Source: an uncultured bacterium (GTDB lineage: Bacteria; Latescibacterota; MWCZ01; CAZVGZ01). From it: DNA of 64,000 nt. Where the stretch lies: the NCBI GenBank assembly GCA_964627605.1, contig CAZVGZ010000002.1, positions 84,846 to 148,845 of the forward strand, given 5' to 3'. The position numbers and the translations under genes are program-made. The notes beneath the pieces were generated by a model. It was given only the letters and a program-made list of their open reading frames with translations. It made no database searches and had not been told where the DNA came from. Positions 1,169 to 61,684 of this stretch are shown here, piece after piece (position 1 is the stretch's first letter; the number at the start of each line of letters is the position of its first letter).

Positions 1169-1354
1169 AGCTCGCGTTCCTCCCACCACCAATATCGAGG
1201 GCCTCAAATGTTAGCCTGTGCAGGTCGATTAGTGTCAAACGTGAATATCGCCCAAACAGTCACAGAAAGGGAGCCGCTGGTGGGCTGACTGCCAAAAAAG
1301 TCTCGCAGCGGGCTCAATTTGGTGAGTAAACAGACCTGCTCAAAGGCCCATCTT

Positions 1355-17375: not shown

Positions 17376-18704
17376 TTACCCCTTATCCCCGTCGCTGTCC
17401 AACGGCGCGTACCATCGATTGAGTACCGAAATCGGATGCTGCGGTTTGATCCCGGTCGCCTGTTCAATGTGAATCGCTGCCGGCGGACAGTCCGATACCG
17501 CGATATTCGCTTTGGCGTTTTGCATCCCCTCAAACGCTTTTCCACCCCACTGCATCGATATCTCAAAATAGTCCTTGCGCATCGCCCAGGTGCCGTCGTG
17601 GGCGCAGCATCGGTCGACCAACTCGACTTCGGCACCAGGAAGAATACGCAGAAGGTCGCGGCTCTTGAAACCGACATTCTGCGCCTTCAGGTGACATGGG
17701 ACGTGATAGACTATTTTGCCGATTTCGTCGCCTATGAAATTCCTGTCCAGCTTCTTCTGCTTGGCGAGGGCAACCAGCCATTCGCTCACATCGTAGGTCG
17801 CCTCAGCCACCGCCGCCGCTTTGGTGGTACCCATCAGCTCGGTGTACTCTTTTTTGAGCATGTATGTGCAGGTTGGGTTGGCGCAAACTATGTCGTAGCC
17901 CTGTTCGACGTAGGGATAGAGAGACCGGATGTTGCTTGCGGCCTGCTCTACAGCAAAATCGATATCCCCTACGTCAATCGCCGGCATACCGCAACAGTTC
18001 TGCTCTGGGCAGACTACCTCTACATCGTTGCGCTCGAGTACCTCCACGACGTCTCTGCCCACTGATGGGTCGTTGTAGTTCGTAAAACATGTATAGAAAA
18101 GAACAACCTTGCCGTTGGTGCCGAGGTTTTCGCCGGCCCCGCGCTTGTTGAACCACTTCCTGAATGTCTCACTGGTGAACGTCGGGAGCTGTTTGCGTTT
18201 GTCGATGCCCAACGCTCCCTGCATAACGAGTCGGTTTACCACGTTTTCGTTGGCCCAGTTCGATACCATCGGCAGTATAGTCGCCATTTTGCCGACTTTG
18301 TCTGGATCAGACAGGATTTTGTCCCCAAGAGACATGCCCTCTTTCTTGACCCGCTGAGCTTTGGCTCTAAGCATAAGACGCGGGAAATCCAGGGCGAAAT
18401 CGTGGCCATCGCCTGGGGTGTAGGGGCATTTGACGTAGCACAGCTTGCACTGGTAGCAGTGATCGACTATCGCGCGGTGTTGTTCGGTTTTCAGGTTAAG
18501 AACGTCGCCGTCCACATCTGGGTCATTATCAAGCGCCTTAAACAGATCGGGGAATGATGGGCAGAGGTTATGACACAGTCGGCATCCGTGGCAGATGTCG
18601 TAAACGCGATCAAACTCTGTCTTGAGCGCTTCGGCGTCCCAATACACCTGATCGTTCGGATTGTATGAAAGGGCCTCGGTGGGCCGTTGATTCATCACGG
18701 GCAT
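17376..18704 (-). CDS. Rubrerythrin-associated Fe-S oxidoreductase (GlpC/HdrB-like CCG domains)
   Basis: CHGCRLCHNLC and CYQCKLCYVKC 4Fe-4S motifs; CCGMP and CCAHDG CCG domains. Confidence 0.9.
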   Translation of the reverse strand: MPVMNQRPTEALSYNPNDQVYWDAEALKTEFDRVYDICHGCRLCHNLCPSFPDLFKALDNDPDVDGDVLNLKTEQHRAIVDHCYQCKLCYVKCPYTPGDGHDFALDFPRLMLRAKAQRVKKEGMSLGDKILSDPDKVGKMATILPMVSNWANENVVNRLVMQGALGIDKRKQLPTFTSETFRKWFNKRGAGENLGTNGKVVLFYTCFTNYNDPSVGRDVVEVLERNDVEVVCPEQNCCGMPAIDVGDIDFAVEQAASNIRSLYPYVEQGYDIVCANPTCTYMLKKEYTELMGTTKAAAVAEATYDVSEWLVALAKQKKLDRNFIGDEIGKIVYHVPCHLKAQNVGFKSRDLLRILPGAEVELVDRCCAHDGTWAMRKDYFEISMQWGGKAFEGMQNAKANIAVSDCPPAAIHIEQATGIKPQHPISVLNRWYAPLDSDGDKG

Positions 18705-47809: not shown

Positions 47810-48143
47810 TTACCGGGCTCTTCAAATTCTTTGGGGGCGCACTGTGGGGCCGTGTTTGTCGCCAGAACAATCAATATAACTGAACCCGACTCCAGCCAAC
47901 ACCCACGGAGCATCGCAATATATTCATCTCACACAGGTGTGAAAACTCCCGTTCGGCGAGAGGAGGAGCGCCAAGCGAGGGTTTTTTTCTCTATAGCGCA
48001 CCCGATCGGGAAGGCAGACTTATCGGATGCCGCATCTATGTGCCGACCAACTGCACTAAAGTAATCCTCCAAACACTGTTTTGCCTGTGACCTCGCTCAC
48101 CGCGGGTTTTATTGGGTTCTGTCGGAGTTCAATCCCACCAGGT

Positions 48144-49418
48144 CTATTCTACACTCCAAGGCAGATCGGAGTGGCTCCCTCGCAGCGATGCCAGAATCTC
48201 CTCTGTGGTGGTGTTTTCCCTGTTGAGCCAACCGTCTTGGGCCTCCTCAAGCAGCTCGCCTACAAGCGGCCCAGGAGGAACACCTGCGGACAGGAGCAGA
48301 TTGCCGTCGATAGGCGCACTGGTGGGATAATCATCGGGGCCGAGTCGATCGAGCTCTTTGCGAAAGTTGCGGTATGGTTTCTCTCTAACCGCCGATGCGC
48401 GCAGATTTGCGCGAAGGAGCGTCAGATGCGCCGGCGCGCGTTTTTGGCGCAGATGGCGCACTCGGTCTGCGCGACTGGATGCGTAGCCCGATAGCCACCA
48501 GCTTTGCTGCTCTACCAGCTCGACGATAGTGTCGCTGATCTCATTGGAGCAACGCCACCGACCCAGCAGCAAATCAATCTGCTCAATCGGCATCGAATGA
48601 CACAAGGCAGCCATAGCGACGCCAATCCCAGCGCGGTCGGGAAGAGCTCCTAGAACCGATATGTTGCGAGACCACCGGTCTCTACTATCACGCCTCAGCT
48701 CTTCAAGCTCTGGAGCGATCACCTCCAACAGCCCCAACTCGGCCAACTTCGCTACACCCTCAAACCGGGAGTGATGTTCCAATATCAACTCCAGTTCACC
48801 CAAAATCCGCTCAGGAGATATTCGGTCCATTGAGCCCGCTAGACTGCTGATGGCTCTTGCTGTTTCAGGCTCGATCTGAAATCCCAATCGGGCAGCAAAC
48901 CGGACCGCCCTCAGCAGCCTAAGGGAGTCCTCCTGGAACCGCTCAATTGGGTCTCCAATGGTCCGAACAAGGCGGCGATCTAAGTCGTCCACACCACCGA
49001 CAAGGTCTGTTACAACAGAGGATTCCGGATCAAAAAGAAGACCGTTTATCGTAAAATCGCGGCGCTGCACATCTGCCGCTTCATCACCAAAAGTCACCGA
49101 AGACGGACGCCGCCCATCTTTATACGCGCCATCTTCCCGAAAGGTCGCCACCTCGTAGGCGTGGCCTCGTAGATAGACTTGAATCACCCCAAAAGTCTGC
49201 CCAACAGCGCGGGTGTGGGAGAAGCAGCGGCGAATCTCCTTCGGGAGGGCGCTCGTGGCGATGTCGAAATCTTTGGGATCTCTTTTGAGCCATAGATCGC
49301 GAACGCACCCACCAACCAGAAAAGCACGAAAACCCTCGGCCCGCAGCCGCATTACGATCTGCACGCTGCTGGCGAAACCTGTGGGCTTGAAATCGATGTC
49401 TATCGGGTAGGTCGGCAT
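48144..49418 (-). CDS. CCA tRNA nucleotidyltransferase / poly(A) polymerase family
   Basis: VGGCVRD, DFD, EVATFR..DGRRP, RRDFTIN, EDSLRLLRAVRF. Confidence 0.92.
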   Translation of the reverse strand: MPTYPIDIDFKPTGFASSVQIVMRLRAEGFRAFLVGGCVRDLWLKRDPKDFDIATSALPKEIRRCFSHTRAVGQTFGVIQVYLRGHAYEVATFREDGAYKDGRRPSSVTFGDEAADVQRRDFTINGLLFDPESSVVTDLVGGVDDLDRRLVRTIGDPIERFQEDSLRLLRAVRFAARLGFQIEPETARAISSLAGSMDRISPERILGELELILEHHSRFEGVAKLAELGLLEVIAPELEELRRDSRDRWSRNISVLGALPDRAGIGVAMAALCHSMPIEQIDLLLGRWRCSNEISDTIVELVEQQSWWLSGYASSRADRVRHLRQKRAPAHLTLLRANLRASAVREKPYRNFRKELDRLGPDDYPTSAPIDGNLLLSAGVPPGPLVGELLEEAQDGWLNRENTTTEEILASLRGSHSDLPWSVE

Positions 49419-49663
49419 ATCAGCAATCAAGCTCGGTGTAGATCGCGGTGGGAAGCCGCTTCAGAGAGAACATAACACTCTGACGCATCGAGCGGCTTGG
49501 GGGACGGTTCACCAGTGTCAGCACCACCCCTGTCATTGGCCTGCATTCTCCAATGCCAGTACATTTAAACAGATCCCCCAGAACGGGTATTCGAGAGGGT
49601 CCGCAGCCAATCAAATCTACAGTGTTGGCACTCTAATCGTCACATCATAGACCGGCCTAGTTG

Positions 49664-52600
49664 ATGAACACGATCTCCGATTTTTTCGATGACCGCACCA
49701 TCCTAATCACCGGTGCCAGCGGTTTTCTGGGGCAGCCGATGCTGGAGAAGATCCTTAGGGAGATTCCCCAGGTCCGCCGCATCTACCTCCTGCTGCGCCC
49801 CAAACGTCAGACCGACGGCTCACTATGGGATGCCCAGGAGCGCGTGCGGCGCGAAGTGCTGAGTTCTTCGGTTTTCGAGCGGCTCCGAGGCGAATTTGGC
49901 GATGGTTTCGAGGAGTATTTCAACCAGAAAGTATACGGCGTTGGCGGTGATCTGACATCCGACCGGCTCGGGATTGATGACGAGGTCTATGCGACGCTCA
50001 CAGAAGAAGTTGACATCGTCATCAACAGCGCGGCAGTAGTGACATTTGATGAGCGCTTGGATTTCGCAGTCAATCTGAACATGATGGGCCCCCGGCGAAT
50101 CATGGCGTTCGCGAACGACTGCCGCGCACTGGCCTGTATTCACGTTTCGACAGCATACGTTCACGGGATGTGCAGCGGGCGGATGGAGGAGACTTTGGTA
50201 CCGCTCAAACGGCTCGTTGGAGAGAGAGCAAACGACGGCGAAACCCTCTCGCTACTCCTCGAAAAAGCCGATGAGTTGACCGCCAGAGCCGGTACCCGGC
50301 GCGAATATGCCGACGGCCCTGAGATGAAACGCGCATTCCTGAAGGAAGCCAAAAAGGAGTTGGCGTCTCGCGGCGACTCCGAAGATGGTTTGCCCGCCTT
50401 GATTGAGTTGTGCCGAACCAGGTGGATCAGGGAAAGTCTCATGGAAGAGGGGATAGACTCGGCGCGTGAGGCAGGCTGGAACGACACCTACACCTACACT
50501 AAAGCCCTCGGCGAGCATATGGTCGCCGCCACCCACGACCAGGTCCCTACGGCGATTGTTCGCCCGGCGATCATCGAAAGCAGTCTGGCTGAGCCGGTTC
50601 CCGGGTGGCTCGATGGCTTCCGCATGGCCGATCCGCTGATTGCGGCTATGGCTAAAGCGCAGCTCAAGGATTTCCCGGCGTCACCAGGCAGAAATCTGGA
50701 TCTTATCCCTGTGGACCTGGTCGTAAACACCATTCTGGCGGCGATACCCGCCACGGCTGAAAGCAATGATTTCAAAATCTATCAGGTGGCTTCGAGTTCG
50801 GAGAACCCGGCGACAATAAGCACTATCGTAGGGCAGGTCCAACGCCACTTTTTCGACTACCCGCTCCGTGACAAACGCGGCGAGCCCATCGTGGTGCCAG
50901 CATGGCAATATCCGACTGTAGAGCAGTTTGGTCGAAGGCAGTGGTTGCAGGTGAAAGTACCTCTGATGATCGCCAAGCTGGTTTTTTCTATAATCCCCAA
51001 AGCCCGCAAATGGCGGCGACGTATAGATGTTCTGCTGAAAGCGCTCCAACAGCTCGACTACTACCTGAAAATCTACGGCCCCTACACTAATCTCGATTGC
51101 CAGTTCGACACGACCAATACGAGATTGCTCTACGAATCGCTCGCCGCACCTGAACAGACCGCTTTCAGCTTCTGCCCAACCCGGATCGATTGGCCGGAGT
51201 ACATCTATGCCATCCATATCCCAGGCCTCAAATACTATGTCATGAAGATCGTCGATGAGAGCACCGAAAGGCTGCGCCACGCTGCTGTTCATGGGATGGA
51301 CTCCGATCCACGCGGACCATATCTACCAACGACAATCCCTGAGCTGCTCACGCGCAGCGCAGCGCGGTGGCCTGATAAAGTGGCGGTTCAGGCTAAAAGG
51401 GGTGGTCAATGGACCAGGTTGACATATGCCGATATTCACGAACGCTCGCGTCTGATCGCCGCCTCTTTCCGTAAGCGGGGTCTCTCTCAAGGAGACCGGG
51501 TTGTTCTCTACTCAGAAAACCAGCCGGAGTGGGCGGTCGCATATTTTGCAGCGTCAGCTCTGGGCCTGACAGTAGTACCGCTCGACCGTCAGGTCGAACC
51601 TGAGGACGCCTGTGACTTAGCGCGCCTTACTGACGCCAAGGCGATCCTCGCCTCGCACTGCTGCATGGGGTCAGTCGCAAGCGTTTCCACAGACACACCT
51701 GTCTGGAATATCAACAACTGGTGTTTGCCGCTGGATTCGCCAGACGCCAGCGAGGTCGAATTCACAACGCCCAGTGACGACGATCTACCCCACGTTCACC
51801 CTGAATCCCCAGCGTCAATAGTGTTCCTCATCGCGGTTGTGGAACCCAAAGCGGCGGTTTTGTCGCACCGCAATTTTTTGGCCGACCTGAAAGCGGTGAC
51901 CAAAAAGCTGACACCCAATCATGATGAACAGTTCTTGTCGGTCTTGCCGCTGAACCATGTGTTCGAGTTCACAACAGGGCTTTTGACGCCTGTTTCCGCA
52001 GGTGCGACGGTGACCTACGTCGATCGCCTCAACTCACGGGAAATCATGAGCTTAATGAGGGAGACCGGCACCACGGCGGTGCTGGGAGTTCCACGGCTGT
52101 TTAGGATGTTCCTTGACGGGATTCAAAAACAGGTGCAACGCCGTTCTGCTGTTGTCAGAGCGGTTTTCAAAACGGCGCTCTGGTACAATAGACGTCGGCA
52201 GAGCGCCAGATTCGGCGTCAAACTGTTTAAACATGTCCACGAAGCGTTCGGTGGCAAGCTTAGGATTTTCATCAGCGGCGGCGCGGCGTTGGACAGCTAT
52301 CTATATCAGGCTTTTTGGTCGATGGGCATCCCCCTCTGCGAGGGGTACGGACTGACTGAGACAGCGCCTGTGCTCACCGTCTGCACATGGTCTGAGCACA
52401 AGCCTGGATCGGCTGGAAAACCGCTGCCGGGAGTCGATCTGAGGATAGAACAGCCCAACGGCTCTGGAGTCGGAGAGATAATCGTTCGTGCGCCGAATGT
52501 GATGCTGTGCTACTACGATGATCCCGAAGCGACTGAGACGGCGTTCAAAGATGGCTGGTTCCATACAGGCGATCTTGGGCGGCTGGACGATGAGGGGTTC

Positions 52601-54010
52601 ATCCACATCACCGGGCGGATCAAAGAGGTCATGATCACCGGTGCGGGAAAGAACGTCTATCCGGTGGAAGTGGAGCATAAGTACGGCGGGTTTCCAGCGG
52701 TTGATAACTACTGCATCGTAGGCGTGCCACCACCAGGTAAACTCAGCGACGAGGTTCATGCGGTGATGGTGCCTGATCGCGCACTGGGGCGAGACGAAGG
52801 TGAGGTGCGGGCGCAGGTGGTGGAAGCTGCCAAAGAGCGGGGCCGTTCGCTTCCTAGCTACCAGCGGATCCAGAAGTTTCACTTCAGTGAGTCGCTGCCT
52901 CTTAAAGCCGACGGCAAAGTCGATCGCAAGGCGGTGCGGGCAAGTCTGGTCGCCGAAGCGTCATATACAGGCGACGCTGGCGAGTTTACTCCAGTCGAGT
53001 CGAGTCAAACTATCGCGACTTCATCGCCAGCTCCAGACAACGAAACCAGCGACGCGTTACCCACGGTGGTGGCGGCGTTGTCGGAGTTGACGCGGTGCGA
53101 CTCGGAGTCCGTGCGACTCGAACAGGATTTAGAGATCGACCTTGGCGTGGATTCGATGATGCGGCTGGAGCTTGTAGCCCACCTCGAAAGCGGGTCTGGG
53201 AGCAGTCTGCCGCCGGATGACGCCGTTGCGTGGCAGAGCGTGTCTGACGTAGTGGATTCGCTCAAACGCTCGACTCCTAAGACCGAGGCGGAACAGCAAC
53301 CCCAGGAGTCCAACGGTCGATCCGATGACCTTAAGTGGTATACGCACAAAGGGTTGCCCATTATCGTCCCGACACTGCGCCATGCTGCCCACACTACCGG
53401 TCGGCTCATATATTCGAAATGGTTCGGACTGGATGTAAGTGGGCTGGAGCTTTTGCCAGAAGATCAGTCGTTCATAATCGCTCCAAACCACAGCAGCCAC
53501 CTTGACACCGGAGCCATCACTTTTGCGGTTAGGGGGGCGTCGTCCTCGCTATATGTTTTGGGCGCAAAAGACTACTTTTTCAACTCGTGGCTCAAAGGGT
53601 GGTTCGTGAACCGGTTCCTAAGCGTGCTACCTATAGATCGGGGCGGAGATTTCCTTGAGGGTATCCAGCTCTGTAGGCGTGTTGCAGGCGATGGACATCC
53701 TCTTCTGGTTTTCCCTGAGGGGACACGCTCGCCAACCGGGCGCATTCGGGCGTTTCGAGTCGGGTTGGGTCTTCTGGCAGCGGAACTGGATGTGCCGGTC
53801 GTTCCTGCGTGGATTGACGGTACTTATGATGCGCTGCCAAAGGGTTGCTCTTGGCCGCGAAGATCATCAATCCACGTCAGTTTCGGAGCTCCTATATCCA
53901 TGAGCGGCTATGGGCTGGACCAACTGGACGAGACACAGAGGTTCGACGCCTACCGCAGGATCACGTCAGATACCCAGGCCGCTGTCGAAGCGTTGGCGCA
54001 CAGCTCTTAG
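49664..54010 (+). CDS. Multidomain ElbD-like enzyme: fatty acyl reductase + adenylation domain + acyl carrier + PlsC-type acyltransferase
   Basis: FAR: ITGASGFLG, VSTAYV, YTYTK, DLIPVD; A domain: GYGLTET, GWFHTGDLG, GKNVYP; ACP: DLGVDS; AT: NHSSHLD, FPEGTRS. Confidence 0.92.
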   Translation: MNTISDFFDDRTILITGASGFLGQPMLEKILREIPQVRRIYLLLRPKRQTDGSLWDAQERVRREVLSSSVFERLRGEFGDGFEEYFNQKVYGVGGDLTSDRLGIDDEVYATLTEEVDIVINSAAVVTFDERLDFAVNLNMMGPRRIMAFANDCRALACIHVSTAYVHGMCSGRMEETLVPLKRLVGERANDGETLSLLLEKADELTARAGTRREYADGPEMKRAFLKEAKKELASRGDSEDGLPALIELCRTRWIRESLMEEGIDSAREAGWNDTYTYTKALGEHMVAATHDQVPTAIVRPAIIESSLAEPVPGWLDGFRMADPLIAAMAKAQLKDFPASPGRNLDLIPVDLVVNTILAAIPATAESNDFKIYQVASSSENPATISTIVGQVQRHFFDYPLRDKRGEPIVVPAWQYPTVEQFGRRQWLQVKVPLMIAKLVFSIIPKARKWRRRIDVLLKALQQLDYYLKIYGPYTNLDCQFDTTNTRLLYESLAAPEQTAFSFCPTRIDWPEYIYAIHIPGLKYYVMKIVDESTERLRHAAVHGMDSDPRGPYLPTTIPELLTRSAARWPDKVAVQAKRGGQWTRLTYADIHERSRLIAASFRKRGLSQGDRVVLYSENQPEWAVAYFAASALGLTVVPLDRQVEPEDACDLARLTDAKAILASHCCMGSVASVSTDTPVWNINNWCLPLDSPDASEVEFTTPSDDDLPHVHPESPASIVFLIAVVEPKAAVLSHRNFLADLKAVTKKLTPNHDEQFLSVLPLNHVFEFTTGLLTPVSAGATVTYVDRLNSREIMSLMRETGTTAVLGVPRLFRMFLDGIQKQVQRRSAVVRAVFKTALWYNRRRQSARFGVKLFKHVHEAFGGKLRIFISGGAALDSYLYQAFWSMGIPLCEGYGLTETAPVLTVCTWSEHKPGSAGKPLPGVDLRIEQPNGSGVGEIIVRAPNVMLCYYDDPEATETAFKDGWFHTGDLGRLDDEGFIHITGRIKEVMITGAGKNVYPVEVEHKYGGFPAVDNYCIVGVPPPGKLSDEVHAVMVPDRALGRDEGEVRAQVVEAAKERGRSLPSYQRIQKFHFSESLPLKADGKVDRKAVRASLVAEASYTGDAGEFTPVESSQTIATSSPAPDNETSDALPTVVAALSELTRCDSESVRLEQDLEIDLGVDSMMRLELVAHLESGSGSSLPPDDAVAWQSVSDVVDSLKRSTPKTEAEQQPQESNGRSDDLKWYTHKGLPIIVPTLRHAAHTTGRLIYSKWFGLDVSGLELLPEDQSFIIAPNHSSHLDTGAITFAVRGASSSLYVLGAKDYFFNSWLKGWFVNRFLSVLPIDRGGDFLEGIQLCRRVAGDGHPLLVFPEGTRSPTGRIRAFRVGLGLLAAELDVPVVPAWIDGTYDALPKGCSWPRRSSIHVSFGAPISMSGYGLDQLDETQRFDAYRRITSDTQAAVEALAHSS

Positions 54011-54697
54011 ATGGCAACCGGGAGCTGCAGCGCTGCGTTTTTCGACATCGACGGCACGCTGACGCGGACCAACATCGTGATCTACTACGTGGCGCTAGCC
54101 CTAAAGGGCCGGCGCGCAATCTCCAAAACCGTCTGGTACGCTGGTTTCGCGTTTAAAGTCGTACTGTTCCTTATCCTGGACAAGATCTCCCGCAGATGGT
54201 TTAATGTTTTTTTCTATCGTGGCTATAGAGGCTGTACAACAACGGAGCTTGATAGTGTCGCCGGTGAAAATTTCAAAAAAATTACACACCCGCGTCTGTT
54301 TGCCAGCGGCGCGCAGCAGATCAAAGAACATCAGGACAGTGGGGAGATAGTGGTGTTTGTCACCGGCACACTGGACGTGATCGCCGCTCCTTTAGCAGAA
54401 CTGTTGGGCGTGGAGCATGTGATGTCGGTGTCACTGTCAGAACGCGATGGGGTATGCACTGGTGGGTTGACTGGACCGCCTCTGAGCGATGTGGAAAAAG
54501 CACGGAGAGTCAGAGAGTTCGCAGATGAGCACGATATTGATCTCTCGGCAAGTTTCGCCTATGGAGACAGTGCAGCGGATAGGGCAATGCTGGAGGCAGT
54601 GGGAAACCCGGTGGCTGTCAATCCTGACAGGAGTCTGGGGGCCCACGCCAAAGAACATGGATGGCAGGTGCGCCACTGGGCGGACTCGTCGCACTGA
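54011..54697 (+). CDS. HAD-superfamily subfamily IB hydrolase (PSP-like)
   Basis: FFDIDGTL, conserved K, AYGDSAAD, AVNPD; starts directly after the elbD-like stop codon. Confidence 0.92.
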   Translation: MATGSCSAAFFDIDGTLTRTNIVIYYVALALKGRRAISKTVWYAGFAFKVVLFLILDKISRRWFNVFFYRGYRGCTTTELDSVAGENFKKITHPRLFASGAQQIKEHQDSGEIVVFVTGTLDVIAAPLAELLGVEHVMSVSLSERDGVCTGGLTGPPLSDVEKARRVREFADEHDIDLSASFAYGDSAADRAMLEAVGNPVAVNPDRSLGAHAKEHGWQVRHWADSSH

Positions 54698-54828
54698 CAT
54701 TGGGGTGGGGCCTGTCTAAGGTGCAACATTGGTTGTGTAGTTCAACACGCTAAGCCTATAGTGATGTGCGGTGCCGTGGTATTTCGCGGTGAAACAGGAA
54801 TTCAGGGCATGATTCAGGGTGTATATAT

Positions 54829-56061
54829 ATGAAGGCGGTTCAGTACGTAAAGAGCGTCCCTCGCTACCTGATTTTACAGGCGACCAAACGGTGGTGGCCC
54901 AAGGTTGTCACTAGCGTTTTGGCACCGACTAAGCTGCGCGATGTGGAGCCACCTTCGCTCCCGACCCAGAAGTGGGTGAGGATTCGCACACGGATGAGCG
55001 GCATCTGCGGCTCCGATGTAGCCACAGTAGCCGCCAAAGGTAGTGCCTACTTCTCACCGCTGATCTCAACACCGTTTGTCTACGGTCACGAGAATGTCGG
55101 TGATGTGTTCGAGATGGGTACTGACGTTGACCAGTCGTGGTTGGGACGAAGGGTCGTTATTGAGCCGGCTCTGACGTGTGTGGTCAGGGGGATCGAGCCT
55201 GTCTGCGTTCAGTGCGCAAACGGGCAGTTCGCCAACTGCGAAAATGTCACCCAAGGCGACATCGCCCCTGGAATACAGACCGGCTACTGCTTTGATACTG
55301 GTGGCGGATGGAGCTCAGAGTTTGTAGCCCACGAGTGGCAGCTTCATCCTGTACCTGACGAAATGTCAGACGTTACTGCCGTCCTTATTGAGCCGTTTAG
55401 TTGCGCGCTGCATGGTGCTCTGAGGGCGGACGTTCAAATAGGGCAAAGAGTGTTGGTGCTTGGGTGTGGGACCATCGGGCTACTTACCATCGCCGCACTG
55501 AGGGCGTTGGGGGTGTCCAATGAGATCGCTGCGGTAGCGAAATATCCCCATCAGGAGAGACTGGCAACCGATTTTGGAGCCGACGTTGTTCTGAAGCCGG
55601 GAAAAACGCTCTACGATAAAGTACTAGAGCTCTATGGCGCTCAAAAACATCAGCCAGAGTTGGGGAGGCCCATTTTCGTCGGCGGCGCGGAGGTGGTCTT
55701 TGACTGCGTCGGCTCGTCCACTAGTATTGATGACGCGTTGCGTTTCACCCGCGCCCAGGGGACGACCGTGCTGGTGGGAATGCCAGCGATACCATCGGGG
55801 ATCGACTGGACCGCCATCTGGTACAAAGAGCTCAGGGTGGTCGGGGCCTACGCCTACGGCACTGAAAATATCAATGGTCACGAGCACAGGACATTCGAGA
55901 TCGCCACGCAGCTTCTGTCTGGCGATGCGGCCGATAAGATGTCAGGTCTGGTAGGCGGAAAGTATCGAATAGCGGACTTTCGCAAAGCGATCCACAGCGC
56001 ACTTTTCAGCGGAAAGTCTGGCGTGGCAAAAACCGTATTCACGTTTTTGGATGAGGAATAG
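54829..56061 (+). CDS. Zinc-binding (MDR) alcohol dehydrogenase
   Basis: GICGSD, GHE, structural-Zn cysteines, GCGTIG Rossmann motif. Confidence 0.92.
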   Translation: MKAVQYVKSVPRYLILQATKRWWPKVVTSVLAPTKLRDVEPPSLPTQKWVRIRTRMSGICGSDVATVAAKGSAYFSPLISTPFVYGHENVGDVFEMGTDVDQSWLGRRVVIEPALTCVVRGIEPVCVQCANGQFANCENVTQGDIAPGIQTGYCFDTGGGWSSEFVAHEWQLHPVPDEMSDVTAVLIEPFSCALHGALRADVQIGQRVLVLGCGTIGLLTIAALRALGVSNEIAAVAKYPHQERLATDFGADVVLKPGKTLYDKVLELYGAQKHQPELGRPIFVGGAEVVFDCVGSSTSIDDALRFTRAQGTTVLVGMPAIPSGIDWTAIWYKELRVVGAYAYGTENINGHEHRTFEIATQLLSGDAADKMSGLVGGKYRIADFRKAIHSALFSGKSGVAKTVFTFLDEE

Positions 56062-56069
56062 ACGGCAAC

Positions 56070-57686
56070 ATGGCGAATGACAACACGATCTATGTCGAAA
56101 AGAGCGACCGTCCGTTTTCCATGAATTACGGCGCTGGCTTCTGGACTGAAAAACTACCGGTGGGCACCAGGGTTCTTTACCCGAACCCACCGATGGAGGG
56201 GCTTCGCTACATAAGGGATGCTGTTCACGAAGCCGTTGAGAACCCCCACGGTTGCGATCCTCTTTCCGCTCAATTGACCCCTGGGATGAAAGTCACCATC
56301 TGCATCGACGATATCTCTTTGCCGCTGCCCCCGATGCGGACGCCTGACTTCAGGCAGCAGATGTTGGAGTATCTTCTTGAAAAACTGGGCGACGCAGGTG
56401 TTGACGATTTTCACATAGTTGTCGCCATCGGCCTTCACAGGCGAATGACCCCTGCCGAAATCAAGCGCTCTGTCGGCCCCAAAGTGTTCAAAGCCTGCTA
56501 TCCCGACAAGCTCTACAACCACGACTCGGAAGACTACGACAACCTCGTTCACTTGGGACACACGGAGCACGACGAGGATGTGGAGCTCAACAAGCGCGCC
56601 GTCGAGTCCGATCTGGTGATATACTGCAATATCAATCTGGTAAAGATGGACGGCGGTCACAAATCCCTCCAGACAGGGATCAGCTCGTACCGAAGCGTCA
56701 AACACCATCACAACTCCCACACACTCCTGCACTGCGACTCGCTGATGGACCCGCCCAAGTCGGCACTCTACGACAGCGTTGCGCGCATGGGTCGAATCGT
56801 AAATGAGCACATGAACGTCTTTCACATAGAGACCAGTCTTAACAGCGATACATTTCCACACGCGTTCCCGTTTCTCCAAAAACCAGAACGCTCGTGGAAC
56901 GCGTTTGACAGAGCACAGCATGCTATCAACAAAACCACGCTGTCGGCGCTTACGCTGTCGGTTGGGCGAAAGATATTTATGCGGATGCCTGCGCCATATC
57001 TGGTCACCGGTGTCAATGCTGGCAAGACCGAACCGGTTCACGAGCGCACGTTGGCCAAAATACAGGAACAGCAGTGGGTCAAGGTGGATGGGCAGGCCGA
57101 TGTGGTGATCGCCGGAGTGCCGTACATATCACCATATAACGTCAACTCCAGTGTTATGAACCCGCTTCTCGTCAACTGCCTGACCGCAGGATATATGTTT
57201 CATATGTACGAGGGCGTTCCGCTGGTTAGGCAGGGCGGCGTGATGATTCTTCCGTGCCCTCTGGAGTACAAATTCGACAAGCGTCACCATCCGTCCTACG
57301 TTGACCTTTTTGAAGAGGCGCTCCCTGATTGCCTGGATCCGGCGGATATGGAGGCCAAATACGAGGAGAAGTACGCCAGCGATCCTGGCTACCTGGACGC
57401 CTACCGCAACGACTTCGCCTACCACGGCGTTCATCCGCTCTACATGTGGTACTGGGCGGCGCTGGGCATGAAGCATATGGGGCAGATTATCTACGTCGGT
57501 GCCAAATCTGATGAGGCCGCAAAGCGAATGGGGTTTGAGGTGGCACCCAATGTCGCCGAAGCCGTGGAGATGGCCAAAAATATCGTCGGCAAGCCAAACC
57601 CTGACATCACCTGTTTTCATATGCCGCCTATTTTCGTCTGCGACATGACGGGCACAACCGGCGAATCGGTGCCTACCCATGGCTGA
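56070..57686 (+). CDS. Lactate racemase-like (LarA/DUF2088) domain protein
   Basis: IDDISLP, AIGLHR, NHD, DGGHKS, HHHN. Confidence 0.85.
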   Translation: MANDNTIYVEKSDRPFSMNYGAGFWTEKLPVGTRVLYPNPPMEGLRYIRDAVHEAVENPHGCDPLSAQLTPGMKVTICIDDISLPLPPMRTPDFRQQMLEYLLEKLGDAGVDDFHIVVAIGLHRRMTPAEIKRSVGPKVFKACYPDKLYNHDSEDYDNLVHLGHTEHDEDVELNKRAVESDLVIYCNINLVKMDGGHKSLQTGISSYRSVKHHHNSHTLLHCDSLMDPPKSALYDSVARMGRIVNEHMNVFHIETSLNSDTFPHAFPFLQKPERSWNAFDRAQHAINKTTLSALTLSVGRKIFMRMPAPYLVTGVNAGKTEPVHERTLAKIQEQQWVKVDGQADVVIAGVPYISPYNVNSSVMNPLLVNCLTAGYMFHMYEGVPLVRQGGVMILPCPLEYKFDKRHHPSYVDLFEEALPDCLDPADMEAKYEEKYASDPGYLDAYRNDFAYHGVHPLYMWYWAALGMKHMGQIIYVGAKSDEAAKRMGFEVAPNVAEAVEMAKNIVGKPNPDITCFHMPPIFVCDMTGTTGESVPTHG

Positions 57687-58569
57687 CAACCGTCTGCTGA
57701 TAGTCGCCAACCCTATATCGGGCTCCGGTCGCAGCAAAAAACTGTGCGAAGCTGTCTGCCTCGAACTCAAGCAACTCGGTGTTGACGTTGAGGTCCGTTG
57801 GACCGACCAGGTCGGTGCTGCGAAAAGGATTGCTCAAGAGGCGTCAACCGAGGATTGGTCGGTTATCGCGGCGTGCGGCGGTGATGGAACCGTTCACGAG
57901 ACGATCAACGGTCTGGTCTCAGACGCGGGAGACCAGCCAGCGTTTGCGGTGATTCCAGCGGGCAAAGGCAACGACCTCGCAAGGGCGTTAGGGATGCCAA
58001 ACGGGGCTGCTGAGATAGCGAAACTGTTGAAACTAGACAACCGCAGGTCGATTGATCTTGGCAGGATAGAAGGACAGCTTTTCGCCACGGTCGCCACGTT
58101 GGGATTTGATGCGGAAGTAGCTCGCACAGTGCATGAGGGGTCGATCCCGTTCAGCGGAGTGATTACCTACGTCTTGGCGGTTTTGAAGACTTTGGCGACA
58201 CACCGTTGTCAAAAGATGACGCTGACCGGGGATTTCGGCGTGCGGGATGCCAAAATGTTTTTGGCGGCGACGGCCAACACATCAAGCTACGGTGGTGGGA
58301 TGTTCATAGCGCCAGACGCACAGCCAGACGATGGGCTTTTCGACGTGTGCGTCATAGACGAGGTCTCCAAGTTCACAGTTCTGCGGATTTTCCCAAAAGT
58401 GTTCGCTGGCACTCACGCGACGCATCCCAAGGTCGAGATTCTTCGCACTTCGTCGCTCAAGATTGAGACAGACGAGCCGTTCCTGCTGTTCGCCGATGGT
58501 GAGCCTATTGTCGAAACGCCGACGACGATTGAGATGTTGCCTAAGGCGCTTGAGGTGGTCGTTCCATAG
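57679..58569 (+). CDS. Diacylglycerol/lipid kinase (DgkB/YegS family)
   Basis: NPISG, GGDGT, PAGKGNDLA, GFDA, YGGG, ADGE; overlaps the upstream gene by 8 nt. Confidence 0.92.
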   Translation: MADNRLLIVANPISGSGRSKKLCEAVCLELKQLGVDVEVRWTDQVGAAKRIAQEASTEDWSVIAACGGDGTVHETINGLVSDAGDQPAFAVIPAGKGNDLARALGMPNGAAEIAKLLKLDNRRSIDLGRIEGQLFATVATLGFDAEVARTVHEGSIPFSGVITYVLAVLKTLATHRCQKMTLTGDFGVRDAKMFLAATANTSSYGGGMFIAPDAQPDDGLFDVCVIDEVSKFTVLRIFPKVFAGTHATHPKVEILRTSSLKIETDEPFLLFADGEPIVETPTTIEMLPKALEVVVP

Positions 58570-58729
58570 ACGCCAAGCGTATAGACGCGCCTACGATAGA
58601 TTTGGCTGTGATGACCCTCCTACCTAAACACACCTTCTCCAAGTCCAAACATCAGATGGCATGGTCGATCAACTCGTTCATGATTGTAGTTTTGTGTTTT
58701 CTCAAAAAAACCCCTCGATCGGAGAGAAG

Positions 58730-59146
58730 ATGTCCGCACTCAAAGGTTTTCACCACATCGCGGTAATGACCACTAAATTCGATGAATCATTCGCTTTCTA
58801 CCGAGACCTGTTGGGTCTGCCGGTGATGCACGCGTGGCAGAGCGGGCCCCGCCGTCTGTGTCTGTTGGCTACCGATCCGTCAAACCCAACTGGTGGGCCG
58901 TATGTGGAGCTGATTGAGTGTGCATCCGACGCGCCGGAACCCGAATCGCATTCCGCACATCCTATAGCGCACCTGACGTTCAGGGTTGATGACGTTGATG
59001 ATGCAATAGAGCCAATCAGGGAAGCTGGGTGTCAGATCACCATCGAGCCGAAAGACGCCATGCTTGGCGACGCGTCTGCCCGACTGGCGTTTTTCACCGG
59101 CCCCAACGATGAGACTATCGAATTTTTTGCATCAGAGGCTGTGTAG
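58730..59146 (+). CDS. VOC/glyoxalase family protein
   Basis: HHIAV, FYRDLLGL, VELI, AHLTFRVDDVD, GPNDETIE. Confidence 0.9.
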   Translation: MSALKGFHHIAVMTTKFDESFAFYRDLLGLPVMHAWQSGPRRLCLLATDPSNPTGGPYVELIECASDAPEPESHSAHPIAHLTFRVDDVDDAIEPIREAGCQITIEPKDAMLGDASARLAFFTGPNDETIEFFASEAV

Positions 59147-59186
59147 CCTCGCGAGTTCGCCGCAGTTCTTTTTTTGGGAGAGACCT

Positions 59187-59495
59187 ATGCGACCCGATGT
59201 TACCCAGGTATTCCGACGTTTATCGTTTTTGATCGCTGTGGTTGTCCTGTGCCAGAATAGCTTCGGTTTTCAGACCGACGGCTTGACTTCTAAAAGGCGT
59301 TCCGCGCTCCGCACGACAGAGTCCATATCAATTGATGGACGTCTGAATGAGGGTGCCTGGTCAGATGCCCAGACTGCTGGCGGCTTTCTCCAGGTTGAAC
59401 CAAACGAGAACTAGCCAGCAAACGAGGCGATCGAAGTCAAAATCCTTTTTGACGACCGCAATGTCTATGTCGGCGTCGTCTGCCACGACAGCAAA
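59187..59495 (+). pseudogene. Truncated CBM9-like/DUF5916 secreted protein with in-frame TAG at 59412-59414
   Basis: Signal peptide; IDGRLNEGAW..GFLQVEPNEN*PANEAIEVKILFDDRNVYVGVVCHDS, after which similarity ends; end approximate. Confidence 0.7.
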
Positions 59496-59649
59496 GGACA
59501 GAACGGGTTTCGGGCCGTAAGCGCTCTTACCAGTCCGCGCCGCTTTGCCGCCTCGCTTGCGGGGTCGATTGCTGCCGCCGCTGTGGGATAATATCGCTCA
59601 AAACAGTCGCGCGGGCCTCGCCTGTCCGTTTCCCAAATCAGGAGTAGGA

Positions 59650-60431
59650 ATGCTATCACTGACCACAGACTATGCTGAAGACAAGGGTGATCCGTCGGAG
59701 TATCTGAGGCGGATTGCTGAGGCGGGTTTTTCGCACACGCACTGGTGTCATCATTGGAATACGGATTTTATGTATTCGCTTGGTGAGATCGAGCAGATAG
59801 GGTGGTGGTTGGATGAGTTTGGGTTGAAGGTGCTGGATTTGCATGGGTCGTGCGGGCCGGAGAAGAACTGGGGGTCGAGCAAGGAGTGGGAGCGGGCTGC
59901 CGGGGTGGAGCTTGTGAAGAACCGGATCGACATGGCTGACAGGTTGGAGGGTGATGAGGTGATAATGCATATCCCAGGAATACCGGGATCAGAGCCGTTG
60001 ATGAGGTCGAACCGTTCGCGAGAGAGCGGAACATAAAGGTATGCCCTGAGAACGGGAAGTTTGATGCGATTAAGCATGTTTTTTCGCTGTACGGTCCTGA
60101 ATATGTCGGTCTCTGCTACGACTGCGGGCATGGGAATATGGCGGGCGATGGATTGGATGATCTGGAGAGTGTGAAAGACCGTTTGGTGTGCACCCATCTC
60201 CATGACAACGACAGCCACGGCGACCAGCACAACCCGCTGTTTACAGGCACCGTTGATTGGCCGAGATTGGCGTCAATTATCGCTCGGTCGAGTTATGAGA
60301 AGTGCATCAGTATGGAGGTGACGCAACCGCTGTCGGGGATTGAGGATGAGACGGAGTTTCTCAAAACGGCTTTTGAGGGTGGTACGAGGTTTTCGGAAAT
60401 GGTGGAGCAGGCGCGGCAAAACATTGGGTGA
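59650..60431 (+). pseudogene. Sugar phosphate isomerase/epimerase (AP-endonuclease-2 TIM barrel), frameshifted at ~60009
   Basis: N-half MLSLTTDY...EPLMRS continues in another frame as [15 protein letters not shown]...YDCGH...HLHDND...SME. Confidence 0.8.
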
Positions 60432-60463
60432 TGAACGGATTTTGATATTCAGGAGGATGCGAG

Positions 60464-61684
60464 TTGAAATTTAAGCAACCGCTAATAGGCAACGCAGAAG
60501 CGCTCTACGACTACGCCTGTAGTGTGCCGGTAATCGACACTCACGAGCACATCCCCAAATCAGAAGAGGACTACAATCAGGCGACTATCAGGTTTGGCCA
60601 CCTATTCAACCCCTATGTGTCCAACGACTTAGCATCTGCGGGGATGCCTTTCCCCAAGGATCAGTGGGCGGCGTTTGTATGCATCGAGGATGATTGGGAG
60701 GCCGTCAAACATGGCAGCTATGCCAGGCCGCTTAGGATAGCGCTCGAATATTTCTACGATGTCGACGATCTCACCCGCGAGAATTTTCTTGATGTCGTCG
60801 AGCGGATCAATGAGGCGAATACCCCAGGGATCTACAAGCGCGTATTCAACGATGCGTGCGGAATTGAGCGGTCGGTGCTGTGCAGCGGCGTGCTGCCAGA
60901 TAGAGACGACCCGCTCATTGTGGGCAATATCAACTCATCGTCGATGATGCTGACGGGCAAAGCCAGTCTGGACGCGATGTCTGAGGAGATAGGCGGTTCA
61001 GCGATCAACTGTTTGGACGAGCTTGAAGAGATTTCAGGCGAGTGGATGGCGCTCAAAGTTTCTCAAGGAGCGATGGAGTTCAAAAGCAGGGCGATGCCCG
61101 TGGAAAGGCCGGACCGTGATGAGGCGGCGGCGGCACTGTCAAACTTGCTTAAAGAGGAGACGACGTCAGACGAAGAGATGTGTCACCTGTCGGCCTGGTT
61201 GAGGGAGGCGAATGCGGTCAAGTGTGCGGAGCTTGGTGTGCCGCTGGCGCTGCATACTGGGGTGTGGAACGATTTCAGGACTCTGTCGGTGAGTGACATT
61301 ATCGGGTTCATAGAGCGCAACCCCGACACCAGGATGGATATATATCATTTGGGCATCCCAGACGTGAGGACCGCGATTCAGGTGGTGAAAAACTATCCGA
61401 ATGCCTACCTCAACCTCTGTTGGGCGCACGTTGTCGCCAGCTACATGGTGGTGAACACCATGAACGAGGCGGTGGACATGGTACCTATGAACAAGATTTT
61501 CGCGTTCGGTGCGGACTATGTGCTGTTTGTGGAAAAAGTGTATGGGCATCTCTTGTTGGCAAGAGAGAATGTCGCCCTGGTGTTGGGCGACCGTGTGGAC
61601 CGGAATCTGATGGATATGTCAGAGGCTATGGAGACGCTAAAAGCGTGGTTTTACGACAACCCCAAACAGTTCTATGGGCTGTAG
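60464..61684 (+). CDS. Amidohydrolase superfamily protein (uronate-isomerase-like)
   Basis: IDTHEH, HTG, YH, FGAD metal ligands; AGGAGG RBS. Confidence 0.85.
   Translation: MKFKQPLIGNAEALYDYACSVPVIDTHEHIPKSEEDYNQATIRFGHLFNPYVSNDLASAGMPFPKDQWAAFVCIEDDWEAVKHGSYARPLRIALEYFYDVDDLTRENFLDVVERINEANTPGIYKRVFNDACGIERSVLCSGVLPDRDDPLIVGNINSSSMMLTGKASLDAMSEEIGGSAINCLDELEEISGEWMALKVSQGAMEFKSRAMPVERPDRDEAAAALSNLLKEETTSDEEMCHLSAWLREANAVKCAELGVPLALHTGVWNDFRTLSVSDIIGFIERNPDTRMDIYHLGIPDVRTAIQVVKNYPNAYLNLCWAHVVASYMVVNTMNEAVDMVPMNKIFAFGADYVLFVEKVYGHLLLARENVALVLGDRVDRNLMDMSEAMETLKAWFYDNPKQFYGL

Follow-up and report, generated by a model that had tools for sequence, protein, structure and literature searches.

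The window (the whole 64,000-nucleotide stretch of DNA that was analysed) contains an operon-like variant of the elb cluster, in the order elbD - elbB - Zn-dehydrogenase - elbC - lipid kinase, which in our judgement probably makes 1-O-alkyl-glycerol (phospho)lipids without AGPS. As judged from its sequence, the cluster is elb-type and a variant of a published kind. Five co-oriented ORFs on the + strand (49664-58569) encode an ElbD-like multidomain enzyme (49664..54010, 1448 aa), an ElbB-like HAD-IB phosphatase (54011..54697, 228 aa), a Zn-dependent medium-chain dehydrogenase of polyol/secondary-alcohol type in the place of ElbE (54829..56061, 410 aa), an ElbC-like LarA homolog of the LarAH14/15/16 group that is a putative nickel-pincer-nucleotide (NPN) enzyme with a single catalytic His (56070..57686, 538 aa), and a YegS/DgkB-type lipid kinase, perhaps for DAG or alkylglycerol (57679..58569, 296 aa). 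The spacings are 0, 131 and 8 nt followed by an 8-nt overlap, exactly as described in the first-pass annotation. An alternative TTG start at 49661 (1449 aa) lies directly 5' of the elbD ATG; the database copy of the protein has 1448 aa, i.e. the ATG start.

The ElbD-like protein consists of a FAR domain (NAD_binding_4 and Sterile, which match aa 16-529; 49700..51247, aa 14-529), an adenylation domain (AMP-binding and AMP-binding_C; 51350..52918, aa 564-1086), an acyl-carrier (PP-binding) domain (53063..53257, aa 1135-1199) and a PlsC/AGPAT-type acyltransferase domain (53432..53815, aa 1258-1385), all on the + strand and identified with Pfam. This order matches the architecture given for Myxococcus xanthus ElbD in the available text of PMC9131029, as had been recognized at first pass, and according to the same text M. 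xanthus with a disrupted elbD contains much less alkyl and vinyl ether lipid. Catalytic motifs were intact across all four domains in a 14-sequence alignment, with TGxxGFLG and YxxxK of the FAR, the DS motif of the ACP (D1163-S1164) and NHxSHLD and PEGxRS of the acyltransferase (H1276-x4-D1281 and E1352-G-x-R-S) invariant. The top NCBIfam models for the adenylation domain were long-chain fatty-acid ligases, each below its cut-off. Identity was approximately 30-32 % to counterparts in Myxococcales MAGs and Sorangium and 41-42 % for the top outside matches, while stand-alone FAR genes, 38-44 % identical to the FAR domain, were present in 11 of 40 same-phylum relatives.

The partner genes were assigned by synteny. 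The M. xanthus elbA-E operon (MIBiG BGC0000871; Lorenzen et al. 2014, via the accessible parts of reviews PMC9131029 and PMC13012113) has the locus tags MXAN_1531-MXAN_1527 for elbA-elbE in the latter review; the published order is elbB-elbC-elbD-elbE, and according to the former review elbB and elbC need not be linked. One Myxococcales MAG locus (L014) has the order HAD - LarAH - ElbD - NAD-epimerase, which is the published order; the HAD phosphatase is therefore identified as ElbB and the LarA homolog as the probable ElbC. Here, as in L015, L016 and L042, the position between HAD and ElbD is occupied by a LarAH14-16 homolog 48-49 % identical to that of the cluster, and ElbE-like genes also lie 3' of ElbD in L012, L015, L016 and L042. 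In Sorangium sp. So ce176, HAD and LarAH are paired (829 bits) at a distance of some 0.5 Mb from elbD-elbE, matching the unlinked elbB and elbC mentioned in the review. The HAD-IB protein (TIGR01490, 140 bits, cut-off 98; DIDGT and GDSAAD motifs) is 34-36 % identical to the HAD beside LarAH/ElbD in Myxococcales MAGs and Sorangium. The identification as ElbC thus comes from gene order in Myxococcales MAGs and Sorangium rather than from the sequence of M. xanthus DK1622, and is put forward on that footing. On this reading the HAD and LarA-like genes, listed in the first-pass annotation as extra partners, are counterparts of elbB and probably elbC, and only the Zn-dehydrogenase and the kinase are additions.

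These two additions recur across loci and do define a variant, as had been suggested. The dehydrogenase (ADH_N and ADH_zinc_N) had no NCBIfam equivalog at or above cut-off; its closest solved relatives are ketose reductase and butanediol, xylitol and sorbitol dehydrogenases. When aligned with ketose reductase 1e3j, it keeps GICGSD, GHE, CxxxxxxxCxxCxxxxxxxC and GCGTIG, and with them the catalytic Zn ligands, structural four-Cys loop and GxGxxG fold of polyol-type dehydrogenases. No ElbE-like gene is present in the cluster, and the best match in the genome (29 % identity, 96 bits) is on another contig. The lipid kinase (DAGK_cat and YegS_C) scored 181.5 bits with TIGR00147 (cut-off 118.65) and has its GGDGT motif at aa 67-71.

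Neighbourhoods were surveyed for the best 80 of 596 confirmed hits, comprising 24 FAR-bearing loci and 56 with ACS-ACP-AT relatives only. At least one of HAD, ZnADH, LarAH and DAGK was found at 21 of the 24 FAR-bearing loci and none of them at the 56 loci with Aas-like ACS-ACP-AT but without a FAR. Among the 24, a HAD (30-47 % identity) adjoins ElbD/FAR in 16, Zn-dehydrogenase homologs (41-57 % identical) occur in eight, and six have a kinase (29-47 % identity) no more than 6 kb away from ElbD/FAR; the dehydrogenase and kinase are also found in one same-phylum relative (G008), which has HAD-ZnADH-LarAH-DAGK in identical order. The Zn-dehydrogenase (these eight loci, G008 and this cluster) and an ElbE-like SDR (six loci) never share a locus. 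FAR-HAD-ZnADH-LarAH was present in five complete Actinomycetota/Dormibacterota-type loci and in a sixth (L075) that ends at the contig end, and LarAH directly adjoins ElbD in five loci labelled Myxococcales, Proteobacteria or Acidobacteriota. Conservation of the neighbours with ElbD/FAR homologs across phyla, the synteny comparison called for at first pass, was thus found, and the arrangement is not due to chance, since it recurs at these loci.

The same survey bears on whether the genes are two unrelated adjoining units, one for lipid recycling (an Aas-like acyl-ACP synthetase/acyltransferase, a phosphatase and a DAG kinase) and one for sugar or polyol acids (the Zn-dehydrogenase and a LarA epimerase). 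This division would fit the 131-nt gap between HAD and Zn-dehydrogenase, the resemblance of the latter to polyol dehydrogenases, the carbohydrate genes adjoining relatives of the 9q2u/9q3j LarA homologs (PMC12611868, section 2.6) and the partial NCBIfam match of the ElbD-like protein to acyl-[ACP]-phospholipid O-acyltransferase (176 bits, cut-off 1221). It is made very improbable by the recurrence of HAD-ZnADH-LarAH beside FAR and of LarAH beside ElbD, and by the lack of these partners at all 56 FAR-less loci among the best 80 of 596 hits. Contigs from one metatranscriptome library (X19), 99 % identical, touch all five genes, one bridging the elbD/HAD junction and another the ZnADH/LarAH junction; they also argue, weakly, for a single unit and give a slight hint of transcription, although DNA carry-over could be their source.

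A further line of evidence is the distribution of AGPS. In the 96.8 %-complete genome no AGPS was found at E<=1e-30, the best tblastn match being 79 bits with 21 % identity. FAR was detected in 12 of 41 same-phylum genomes. A strong AGPS match (814-885 bits) and no ElbC-type LarAH were found in ten of them, nine of which have the AGPS gene no more than 6 kb away from FAR; the other two, this genome and G008, lack AGPS and carry an ElbC-type LarAH (770 and 514 bits) together with HAD-ZnADH-DAGK. With named MAGs included, the 18 ElbD/FAR genomes tested for both comprised 13 with AGPS only, five with LarAH only, none with both and none with neither, a tally that covers few independent lineages, with nine of the 13 AGPS-only genomes from one genus. 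According to the available text of PMC9131029, the two pathways occur together in M. xanthus. The alternation of AGPS and ElbC among these 18 ElbD/FAR genomes seems to be a new observation. The alternation suggests that the HAD-ZnADH-LarA module may replace AGPS plus a reductase, a function proposed from gene content.

ElbC is listed as of "unknown function" in the literature consulted in part, the sections of reviews available name no ether-forming enzyme for the ElbD pathway, and no elbC mutant is reported in them. The LarA homolog matches Lar_N (PF09861, E 1.8e-39) and NF052592 (LarAH14/15/16; 770 bits, cut-off 740, model positions 3-519 of 520). In a tree it groups with 14 elb-associated homologs to the exclusion of four paralogs of its own genome (support 100/99). 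In LarA, Lys184 is the covalent tether of the NPN cofactor, His200 a Ni ligand and Asp72 the ribose contact. These anchors of Lactobacillus plantarum LarA are kept as Lys198, His214 and Asp81, with the Lys and His columns conserved in 12 of 12 homologs and the Asp column in all 11 that cover it; the equivalent of catalytic His108 is His123 (11 of 11 homologs). The second catalytic His (His174) is replaced by Asn189 and is Asn, Thr or Val in homologs, never His, in agreement with section 2.1 of PMC12611868 on LarAH groups 14 and 15, as far as that text was available. At the level of the alignment, the carboxylate-binding Arg75 is also missing, being Leu84 here, Leu or Ile in ten homologs and Gln in that of G008. 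Retention of the NPN anchors and one catalytic His, without the second His and the Arg, seems to be a new description of ElbC-type proteins, which appear to have lost features needed for hydroxy-acid racemisation. Genes for NPN cofactor synthesis are present in the genome, all above their cut-offs (LarB, 295 bits, NF033503; LarC, 483, PF01969; LarE, 312, TIGR00268), and LarC was found in eight of ten other LarAH-bearing genomes and not seen in two MAGs whose completeness is not established. LarAH14 from Frankia, the sole family member assayed, was inactive in seven hydroxy-acid assays (PMC7583248), which is compatible with another substrate and also with some other role.

These features also bear on whether the cluster makes another FAR-derived lipid, either free fatty alcohols or wax esters, or long-chain 1,2-diol or 2-hydroxy acid lipids for which LarA would isomerise a 2-hydroxy (fatty) acid and the FAR reduce it. 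FAR and adenylation domains would suit activation and reduction of a 2-hydroxy acid, which may be linked to long-chain diol lipids. The known substrates of characterised LarA-family enzymes are 2-hydroxy acids (PMC7583248, PMC11770544), and no ether lipid has been reported for any non-myxobacterial elb-like cluster. Such a product is nevertheless unlikely, given the missing Arg75 and second-His equivalents, the inactivity of LarAH14 on the hydroxy acids tested, an acyltransferase of PlsC/AGPAT type rather than a wax synthase, and the pairing of the same FAR orthologs in relatives with AGPS, a dedicated ether-lipid enzyme.

For the favoured alkyl-glycerol product, conservation of the neighbours is in keeping with the earlier idea that the partner genes complete an ether-lipid pathway, and the individual enzyme roles are given here as proposals. 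A fatty acid would be attached to the ACP by the adenylation domain and partly reduced by the FAR domain, giving fatty aldehyde or alcohol, and the PlsC-type domain would acylate a glycerol-phosphate or DHAP backbone. ElbC, by transient hydride transfer via its nickel-pincer cofactor, and the Zn-dehydrogenase, in the role of the SDR ElbE, may carry out the redox and ether-forming steps, which in the other pathway would be those of AGPS plus acyl/alkyl-DHAP reductase. Phosphorylation of the alkyl(acyl)glycerol would be adjusted by the HAD phosphatase and the YegS-type kinase to allow its entry into phospholipid synthesis. Membership of the LarA superfamily, loss of racemisation features and alternation with AGPS together make ElbC a candidate for the ether-forming step. 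A tentative and rather doubtful extension is that ElbC-type LarA homologs are nickel-pincer enzymes that supply the step still missing from AGPS-independent, aerobic ether-lipid synthesis in bacteria and act by 'hydrogen borrowing', in which transient hydride abstraction would activate glycerol C2 or the fatty alcohol or aldehyde, the C-O-C bond would form and the hydride would be returned, with the Zn-dehydrogenase or ElbE as partner reductase. If this is true, nickel and LarBCE would be required for elb alkyl-ether lipid synthesis in many phyla, and the scope of the LarA family would reach from hydroxy-acid racemisation to lipid ether formation. LarAH14 showed no activity in any published assay, and the cluster places this orphan LarA group in a genomic context for the first time. 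ElbD homologs are no guarantee of ether lipids, as Pontiella has homologs and no ether lipids were detected (PMC11868695).

The host is, from its sequence relationships, an FCB-group, Latescibacterota-like marine lineage outside Myxococcota. By RecG, the closest named lineages are Latescibacteria, Zixibacteria and KSB1, and the same DNA is present in marine, seawater and vent metagenomes, so that both the non-myxobacterial host and the marine uncultured lineage proposed at first pass were borne out. For geochemistry, this means that a widespread marine FCB-group lineage may be a further producer of non-isoprenoid alkyl glycerol ethers. Two Ger/PlsA-like gene sets are located elsewhere in the genome, on other contigs; therefore any ether lipids need not derive from the elb-type cluster. 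The cluster is real, but too much was made at first pass of its occurrence outside myxobacteria, as ElbD homologs or elb-like clusters in Latescibacterota, Poribacteria, Acidobacteriota and Planctomycetota are already described in the available text of PMC11868695, PMC9426513 and preprint 10.64898/2026.06.23.733905. In the last two, as far as their text was available, antiSMASH/MIBiG-based analysis classes elbD homologs as NRPS-like cores, which raises the question of whether this is a specialised-metabolite cluster for a secreted signalling or defence lipid rather than a bulk membrane lipid, as framed for sponge symbionts. The ether lipid TG-1 is a developmental signal in M. xanthus (PMC11980068), but the five genes and the sequence immediately beside them contain no transporter, regulator or tailoring gene. 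We regard this as improbable; it concerns the role of the product, not the chemistry, and overlaps the alkyl-glycerol reading.

Compared with M. xanthus elb, the cluster shares the FAR-ACS-ACP-AT order of ElbD, the HAD (ElbB) and probably the ElbC-position protein, which in Myxococcales MAG and Sorangium loci belongs to the LarAH14-16 family and is 46-48 % identical to the LarA homolog here. It differs in having elbD first rather than elbB-elbC-elbD-elbE, a Zn-dependent MDR dehydrogenase instead of an ElbA/ElbE-type NAD-epimerase, a YegS-type lipid kinase overlapping the last gene, and an ElbD only approximately 31 % identical to myxobacterial homologs. The elbD and elbB core and marine uncultured hosts are shared with the elb-like/VEPE-related families of sponge symbionts (PMC9426513 and the preprint, in part), in which oxidoreductase, phosphatase and DAG-kinase neighbours vary (Poribacteria, Acidobacteriota); loci L006-L009 from these phyla have DAGK-ElbD-HAD-ZnADH or ElbD-HAD. 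The LarA homolog lies inside the cluster here, whereas the three sponge-symbiont-type genomes that were tested have a divergent LarA homolog (506-524 bits) away from the cluster, and the main text of those papers, as available, names no elbC, racemase or dehydrogenase.

The closest solved relatives of the LarA homolog are LarASp and LarABw (PDB 9q2u/9q3j, PMC12611868; E 1.8e-30 and 1e-23, both domains aligned). With these proteins and LarAH group 14 it shares the tether Lys, Ni His, ribose Asp and one catalytic His, the His174 equivalent not being His. Similarity to 9q2u/9q3j is only about 25-30 %, the Arg75/Lys76 position is Leu/Ile in ElbC-type proteins, and the genomic context of the latter is lipid genes, in contrast to carbohydrate genes for relatives of 9q2u/9q3j. 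Ger/PlsA oxygen-sensitive ester-to-ether reductases are, like elb, another bacterial route to alkyl/alkenyl ethers, with proteins (BcrAD_BadFG and DUF2229) unrelated to those of the cluster. The AGPS-route clusters of same-phylum relatives (ten of 40, e.g. L021) have the order FAR - acyltransferase - AGPS - SDR - DAG kinase and resemble MXAN_1676-1674 of M. xanthus and the peroxisomal pathway of eukaryotes. They share with the present cluster an orthologous FAR (38-44 % identical), the lipid kinase (46-47 % identical) and the presumed product class; they have a separate 650-aa acyltransferase-like protein where the present cluster has a fused ACS-ACP-AT, and AGPS-SDR where it has HAD-ZnADH-LarAH.

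The five genes between 49664 and 58569 (+ strand) are best interpreted, with moderate confidence, as an elb-type operon for alkyl-glycerol ether lipids in which a zinc-dependent dehydrogenase stands in place of ElbE and a lipid kinase has been appended. The first-pass annotation had described five co-oriented genes with defined spacing and domains, and this was borne out by ORF coordinates and by Pfam and NCBIfam matches. The first gene (49664–54010, +) encodes an ElbD-like fusion with NAD_binding_4 and Sterile, AMP-binding, PP-binding and Acyltransferase domains; a TTG start at 49661 immediately precedes the ATG at 49664, and the 1448-aa database copy begins at the ATG. It is followed on the same strand by a HAD-IB phosphatase (54011–54697; TIGR01490 above cut-off), a Zn-dehydrogenase (54829–56061; ADH_N and ADH_zinc_N), a LarA homolog (56070–57686; Lar_N, with a full-length match to NF052592 'LarAH14/15/16' at 770 bits against a cut-off of 740) and a lipid kinase (57679–58569; DAGK_cat and YegS_C, TIGR00147 above cut-off); the first three junctions have gaps of 0, 131 and 8 nt, and the last two genes overlap by 8 nt. 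The Rossmann motif and YxxxK of the fatty-acyl reductase (FAR), the ACP serine, and the H-x4-D and EGxRS motifs of the acyltransferase were invariant across 14 homologs of the ElbD-like protein. The HAD protein carries DIDGT and GDSAAD, the kinase GGDGT, and the dehydrogenase the catalytic Cys/His/Glu, the four-Cys loop and GCGTIG when aligned to polyol-type dehydrogenases.

The flanking genes are housekeeping genes unrelated to the cluster: a CCA/poly(A) polymerase-type nucleotidyltransferase and nuoF/G/H on the opposite strand upstream, and a glyoxalase-family gene and others downstream. Scans of 48000–60500 gave two promoter-like sites (5.8±2.6 in shuffled sequence) and 11 terminator-like sites (11.2±3.2 in shuffles), neither above the shuffles, so operon boundaries are not readable from them. 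A foreign island was considered, but GC content was 0.55–0.57 over the cluster against 0.53–0.58 in the window, with no sign of one. Neighbouring ORFs at 59545–60036 and 60138–60431 (+) encode the N- and C-terminal parts of a single xylose-isomerase-like TIM barrel (AP_endonuc_2), and this pair reflects gene splitting, a frameshift or a faulty assembly. The gene 31 kb upstream at 17376–18704 (−) encodes a GlpC-like anaerobic glycerol-3-phosphate dehydrogenase subunit C (292 bits, cut-off 278).

Two reviews give elbA and elbE of Myxococcus xanthus as NAD-epimerases, elbB as a HAD protein, elbC as of unknown function and elbD as FAR-ACS-ACP-AT, with ether lipids strongly reduced on elbD disruption (PMC9131029; PMC13012113), and the former adds that elbB and elbC need not be linked (PMC9131029). 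An ElbD-alignment scan, with one genome per species, yielded 596 confirmed matches; the best 80 were taken as loci, and the window proteins were compared with all of them. A FAR part, fused or split, was present in 24 of these best 80 loci. Within the 24, a HAD protein was found in 16, a LarA homolog in 10 (and in one further locus cut at a contig end), a Zn-dehydrogenase in eight, a kinase in six and an ElbE-like epimerase in six. Conservation of the neighbours with ElbD homologs, proposed as a check in the first-pass annotation, was evident here: HAD, Zn-dehydrogenase, LarA homolog or kinase, at least one of the four, accompanied FAR in 21 of the 24 loci, and none occurred in the 56 loci of the best 80 that hold only ACS-ACP-AT relatives.

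MAGs bearing the labels Myxococcales, Proteobacteria or Acidobacteriota show the order HAD, LarA homolog, ElbD, epimerase (the epimerase of one Myxococcales MAG, L014, being confirmed by Pfam), which equals the published order elbB-elbC-elbD-elbE. The complete genome of Sorangium sp. So ce176 differs in that its HAD–LarA pair (829 bits, above cut-off) is separated from elbD-elbE by about 0.5 Mb, which fits the published remark on unlinked elbB and elbC. From synteny in these MAGs and in Sorangium, it was concluded that the HAD protein and LarA homolog of the window are the predicted counterparts of ElbB and ElbC. The Zn-dehydrogenase occurred in eight of the best 80 of 596 loci, in a same-phylum relative (G008) and in the window, in no case alongside an ElbE-like gene; it is a real difference from elb clusters with ElbE. 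The arrangement in G008 is FAR, a 665-aa protein, two other genes, HAD, Zn-dehydrogenase, LarA homolog and kinase, while loci from Actinomycetota and Dormibacterota run FAR, HAD, Zn-dehydrogenase, LarA homolog, with an acyltransferase next in two. The same four genes were seen on a contig labelled as the archaeon Nitrosotalea sp. (DATLSE010000006.1); its LarA homolog sits within a Dormibacterota pair in the tree (100/100), and the contig is probably a mis-binned bacterial one.

The host genome, with a completeness of 96.8 %, amounts to 3.44 Mb over 63 contigs. The closest named relatives of the RecG encoded in the window (47–51 % identity) are Latescibacteria, Zixibacteria, KSB1, Cloacimonetes and Caldithrix, of the FCB group, and the alkylglycerone-phosphate synthase (AGPS) genes of same-phylum relatives share 58–66 % identity with their counterpart in a Latescibacterota-labelled MAG. 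These relationships indicate that the host is not a myxobacterium, as the RecG placement bears out for the first-pass annotation, and that it is probably Latescibacterota-like. In 13 run records, half or more of the sampled words were present. The whole or part of the stretch was matched by 20 rows from 14 studies, one flagged as a possible source sample, and rows with more than a small share were labelled marine, seawater or hydrothermal-vent metagenome, in agreement with the marine host proposed earlier. ElbD homologs beyond myxobacteria are already well documented: they are reported in MAGs from the Black Sea, Latescibacterota (50 of 92) among them (PMC11868695), and a preprint describes ten families of gene clusters, in which DAG kinases and phosphatases occur, and stand-alone elbD in Latescibacterota (10.64898/2026.06.23.733905). 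The earlier ether-lipid interpretation was right in kind but over-rated the novelty. An ElbD homolog is also no proof of ether lipids, as the case of Pontiella illustrates (PMC11868695).

Contigs of two metatranscriptome libraries matched the cluster at ≥99 % identity. Those of one library (X19) touch all five genes, one spanning the elbD/HAD junction (53819–54188) and another the Zn-dehydrogenase/LarA junction (56056–56270); these are contigs without strand or level, and uncovered parts of the cluster carry no meaning. This is a weak hint of transcription, because RNA libraries can contain DNA.

Two Ger/PlsA-like sets (two BcrAD_BadFG domains and DUF2229) are encoded elsewhere in the genome, one as a 1020-aa protein on contig C7 (L112:2707–5769) and the other as a split pair of 666 and 520 aa on contig C41 (L113:2505–5967). 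This architecture corresponds to 'ger architecture 2' of the sponge preprint. The sets possibly represent an oxygen-sensitive ether-lipid route, and with them present the elb-type cluster is not the sole candidate ether-lipid source in the organism. CarF/PEDS1 (PF10520) had no match in the genome, nor in the control genomes, which makes this negative uninformative.

Residue equivalences for the LarA homolog were taken, at the level of alignment, from PDB alignments onto Lactobacillus plantarum LarA. The ribose contact Asp72, catalytic His108, nickel-pincer nucleotide (NPN) tether Lys184 and nickel ligand His200 correspond to Asp81, His123, Lys198 and His214, columns that are conserved in 12 elb-associated homologs. 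The second catalytic histidine, His174, is replaced by Asn189, and Arg75, which binds carboxylate and phosphate, by Leu84; none of the 12 homologs has His at position 189, or Arg or Lys at position 84. Asn189 agrees with the missing His174 equivalent reported for LarAH groups 14 and 15 (PMC12611868). A Frankia LarAH14 showed no activity in seven of seven assays (PMC7583248), and one FAR-HAD-Zn-dehydrogenase locus (L075) belongs to a Frankiaceae MAG. The gluconate 2-epimerase activity of a Phytophthora 'LarAH15' (PMC11770544) was not carried over to the window protein; that name may differ from 'group 15' of the 2020 paper. LarB, LarC and LarE are each encoded in the host genome above cut-off, and LarC in eight of ten other genomes with an elb-type LarA homolog.

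The family is large, with at least 5458 proteins at E≤1e-50 among 8000 scored (best identity 51–58 %), and the matches scored bore only the names 'DUF2088', 'lactate racemase domain-containing', 'lactate racemase', 'hypothetical protein' and 'transcriptional regulator'. A tree separated 15 elb-associated LarA homologs from four other paralogs of the genome (100/99), and those associated with Zn-dehydrogenase clustered weakly (82/72). The paralogs, whose sites include window 2–1207 (−), G000:C2:6099–8008 and G000:C26:3145–3690, make the organism seem rich in NPN enzymes; one is truncated at the window start, its top match being a malate-racemase family at 219 bits, below cut-off. Within the cluster's own LarA gene, summed contig depth at 57223–57623 rises from about 6–9 to 49 and 22 in two DNA runs, with loose ends at 57416 and 57456, and a stretch of about 40 nt (AYHGVHP...WYW region) is common to contigs of other organisms from the same samples. 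A literature search covering the main texts of accessible papers found none that connects LarA, DUF2088 or the nickel-pincer cofactor to ElbC or to ether lipids; LarA-type neighbours may already appear in Table S1 of PMC7583248, on the gene neighbours of each LarAH group, and in the figures and supplementary tables of the sponge papers.

A FAR ortholog was found in 12 of 41 same-phylum genomes. Ten of the 12 carry a strong AGPS (814–885 bits), which in nine lies no more than 6 kb from FAR, and all ten lack the elb-type LarA homolog. The other two, the window's genome and G008, lack AGPS and have the LarA homolog at 770 and 514 bits (next best in the set, 98 bits). Further genomes reached through named loci were AGPS-only (three Latescibacterota MAGs) or LarA-only (Sorangium, a Planctomycetota MAG and an unclassified 10-Mb MAG). 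Among all genomes tested for both, 13 were AGPS-only, nine of them from a single genus, five were LarA-only, and none had both or neither. M. xanthus is reported to carry both routes (PMC9131029).

In one Latescibacterota MAG (L021), FAR is followed by a 650-aa protein, an AGPS-like flavoenzyme, an SDR and a lipid kinase. The protein next to stand-alone FAR there (L021:11636–13585) and in G008 (L104:6655–8649) is 55 % identical between the two, and the window's genome lacks a homolog of it. Pfam at E≤5 assigned it no family, one copy giving a marginal Acyltransferase match (E 0.15); Atlas features pointed, as a lead only, to PF01553 acyltransferases (score 0.92, 28 of 30 matches), and a role as GNPAT-like DHAP acyltransferase is possible.

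A speculative reading, which we consider rather improbable, casts ElbC as a nickel-pincer enzyme and a functional alternative to AGPS. The LarA homolog is proposed to contribute to the ether-forming step or to carry it out. This proposal follows from comparison of the two cluster types, which match gene for gene in FAR, acyltransferase, reductase (SDR against Zn-dehydrogenase or ElbE) and kinase, and so leave AGPS opposite the LarA homolog together with the HAD protein.
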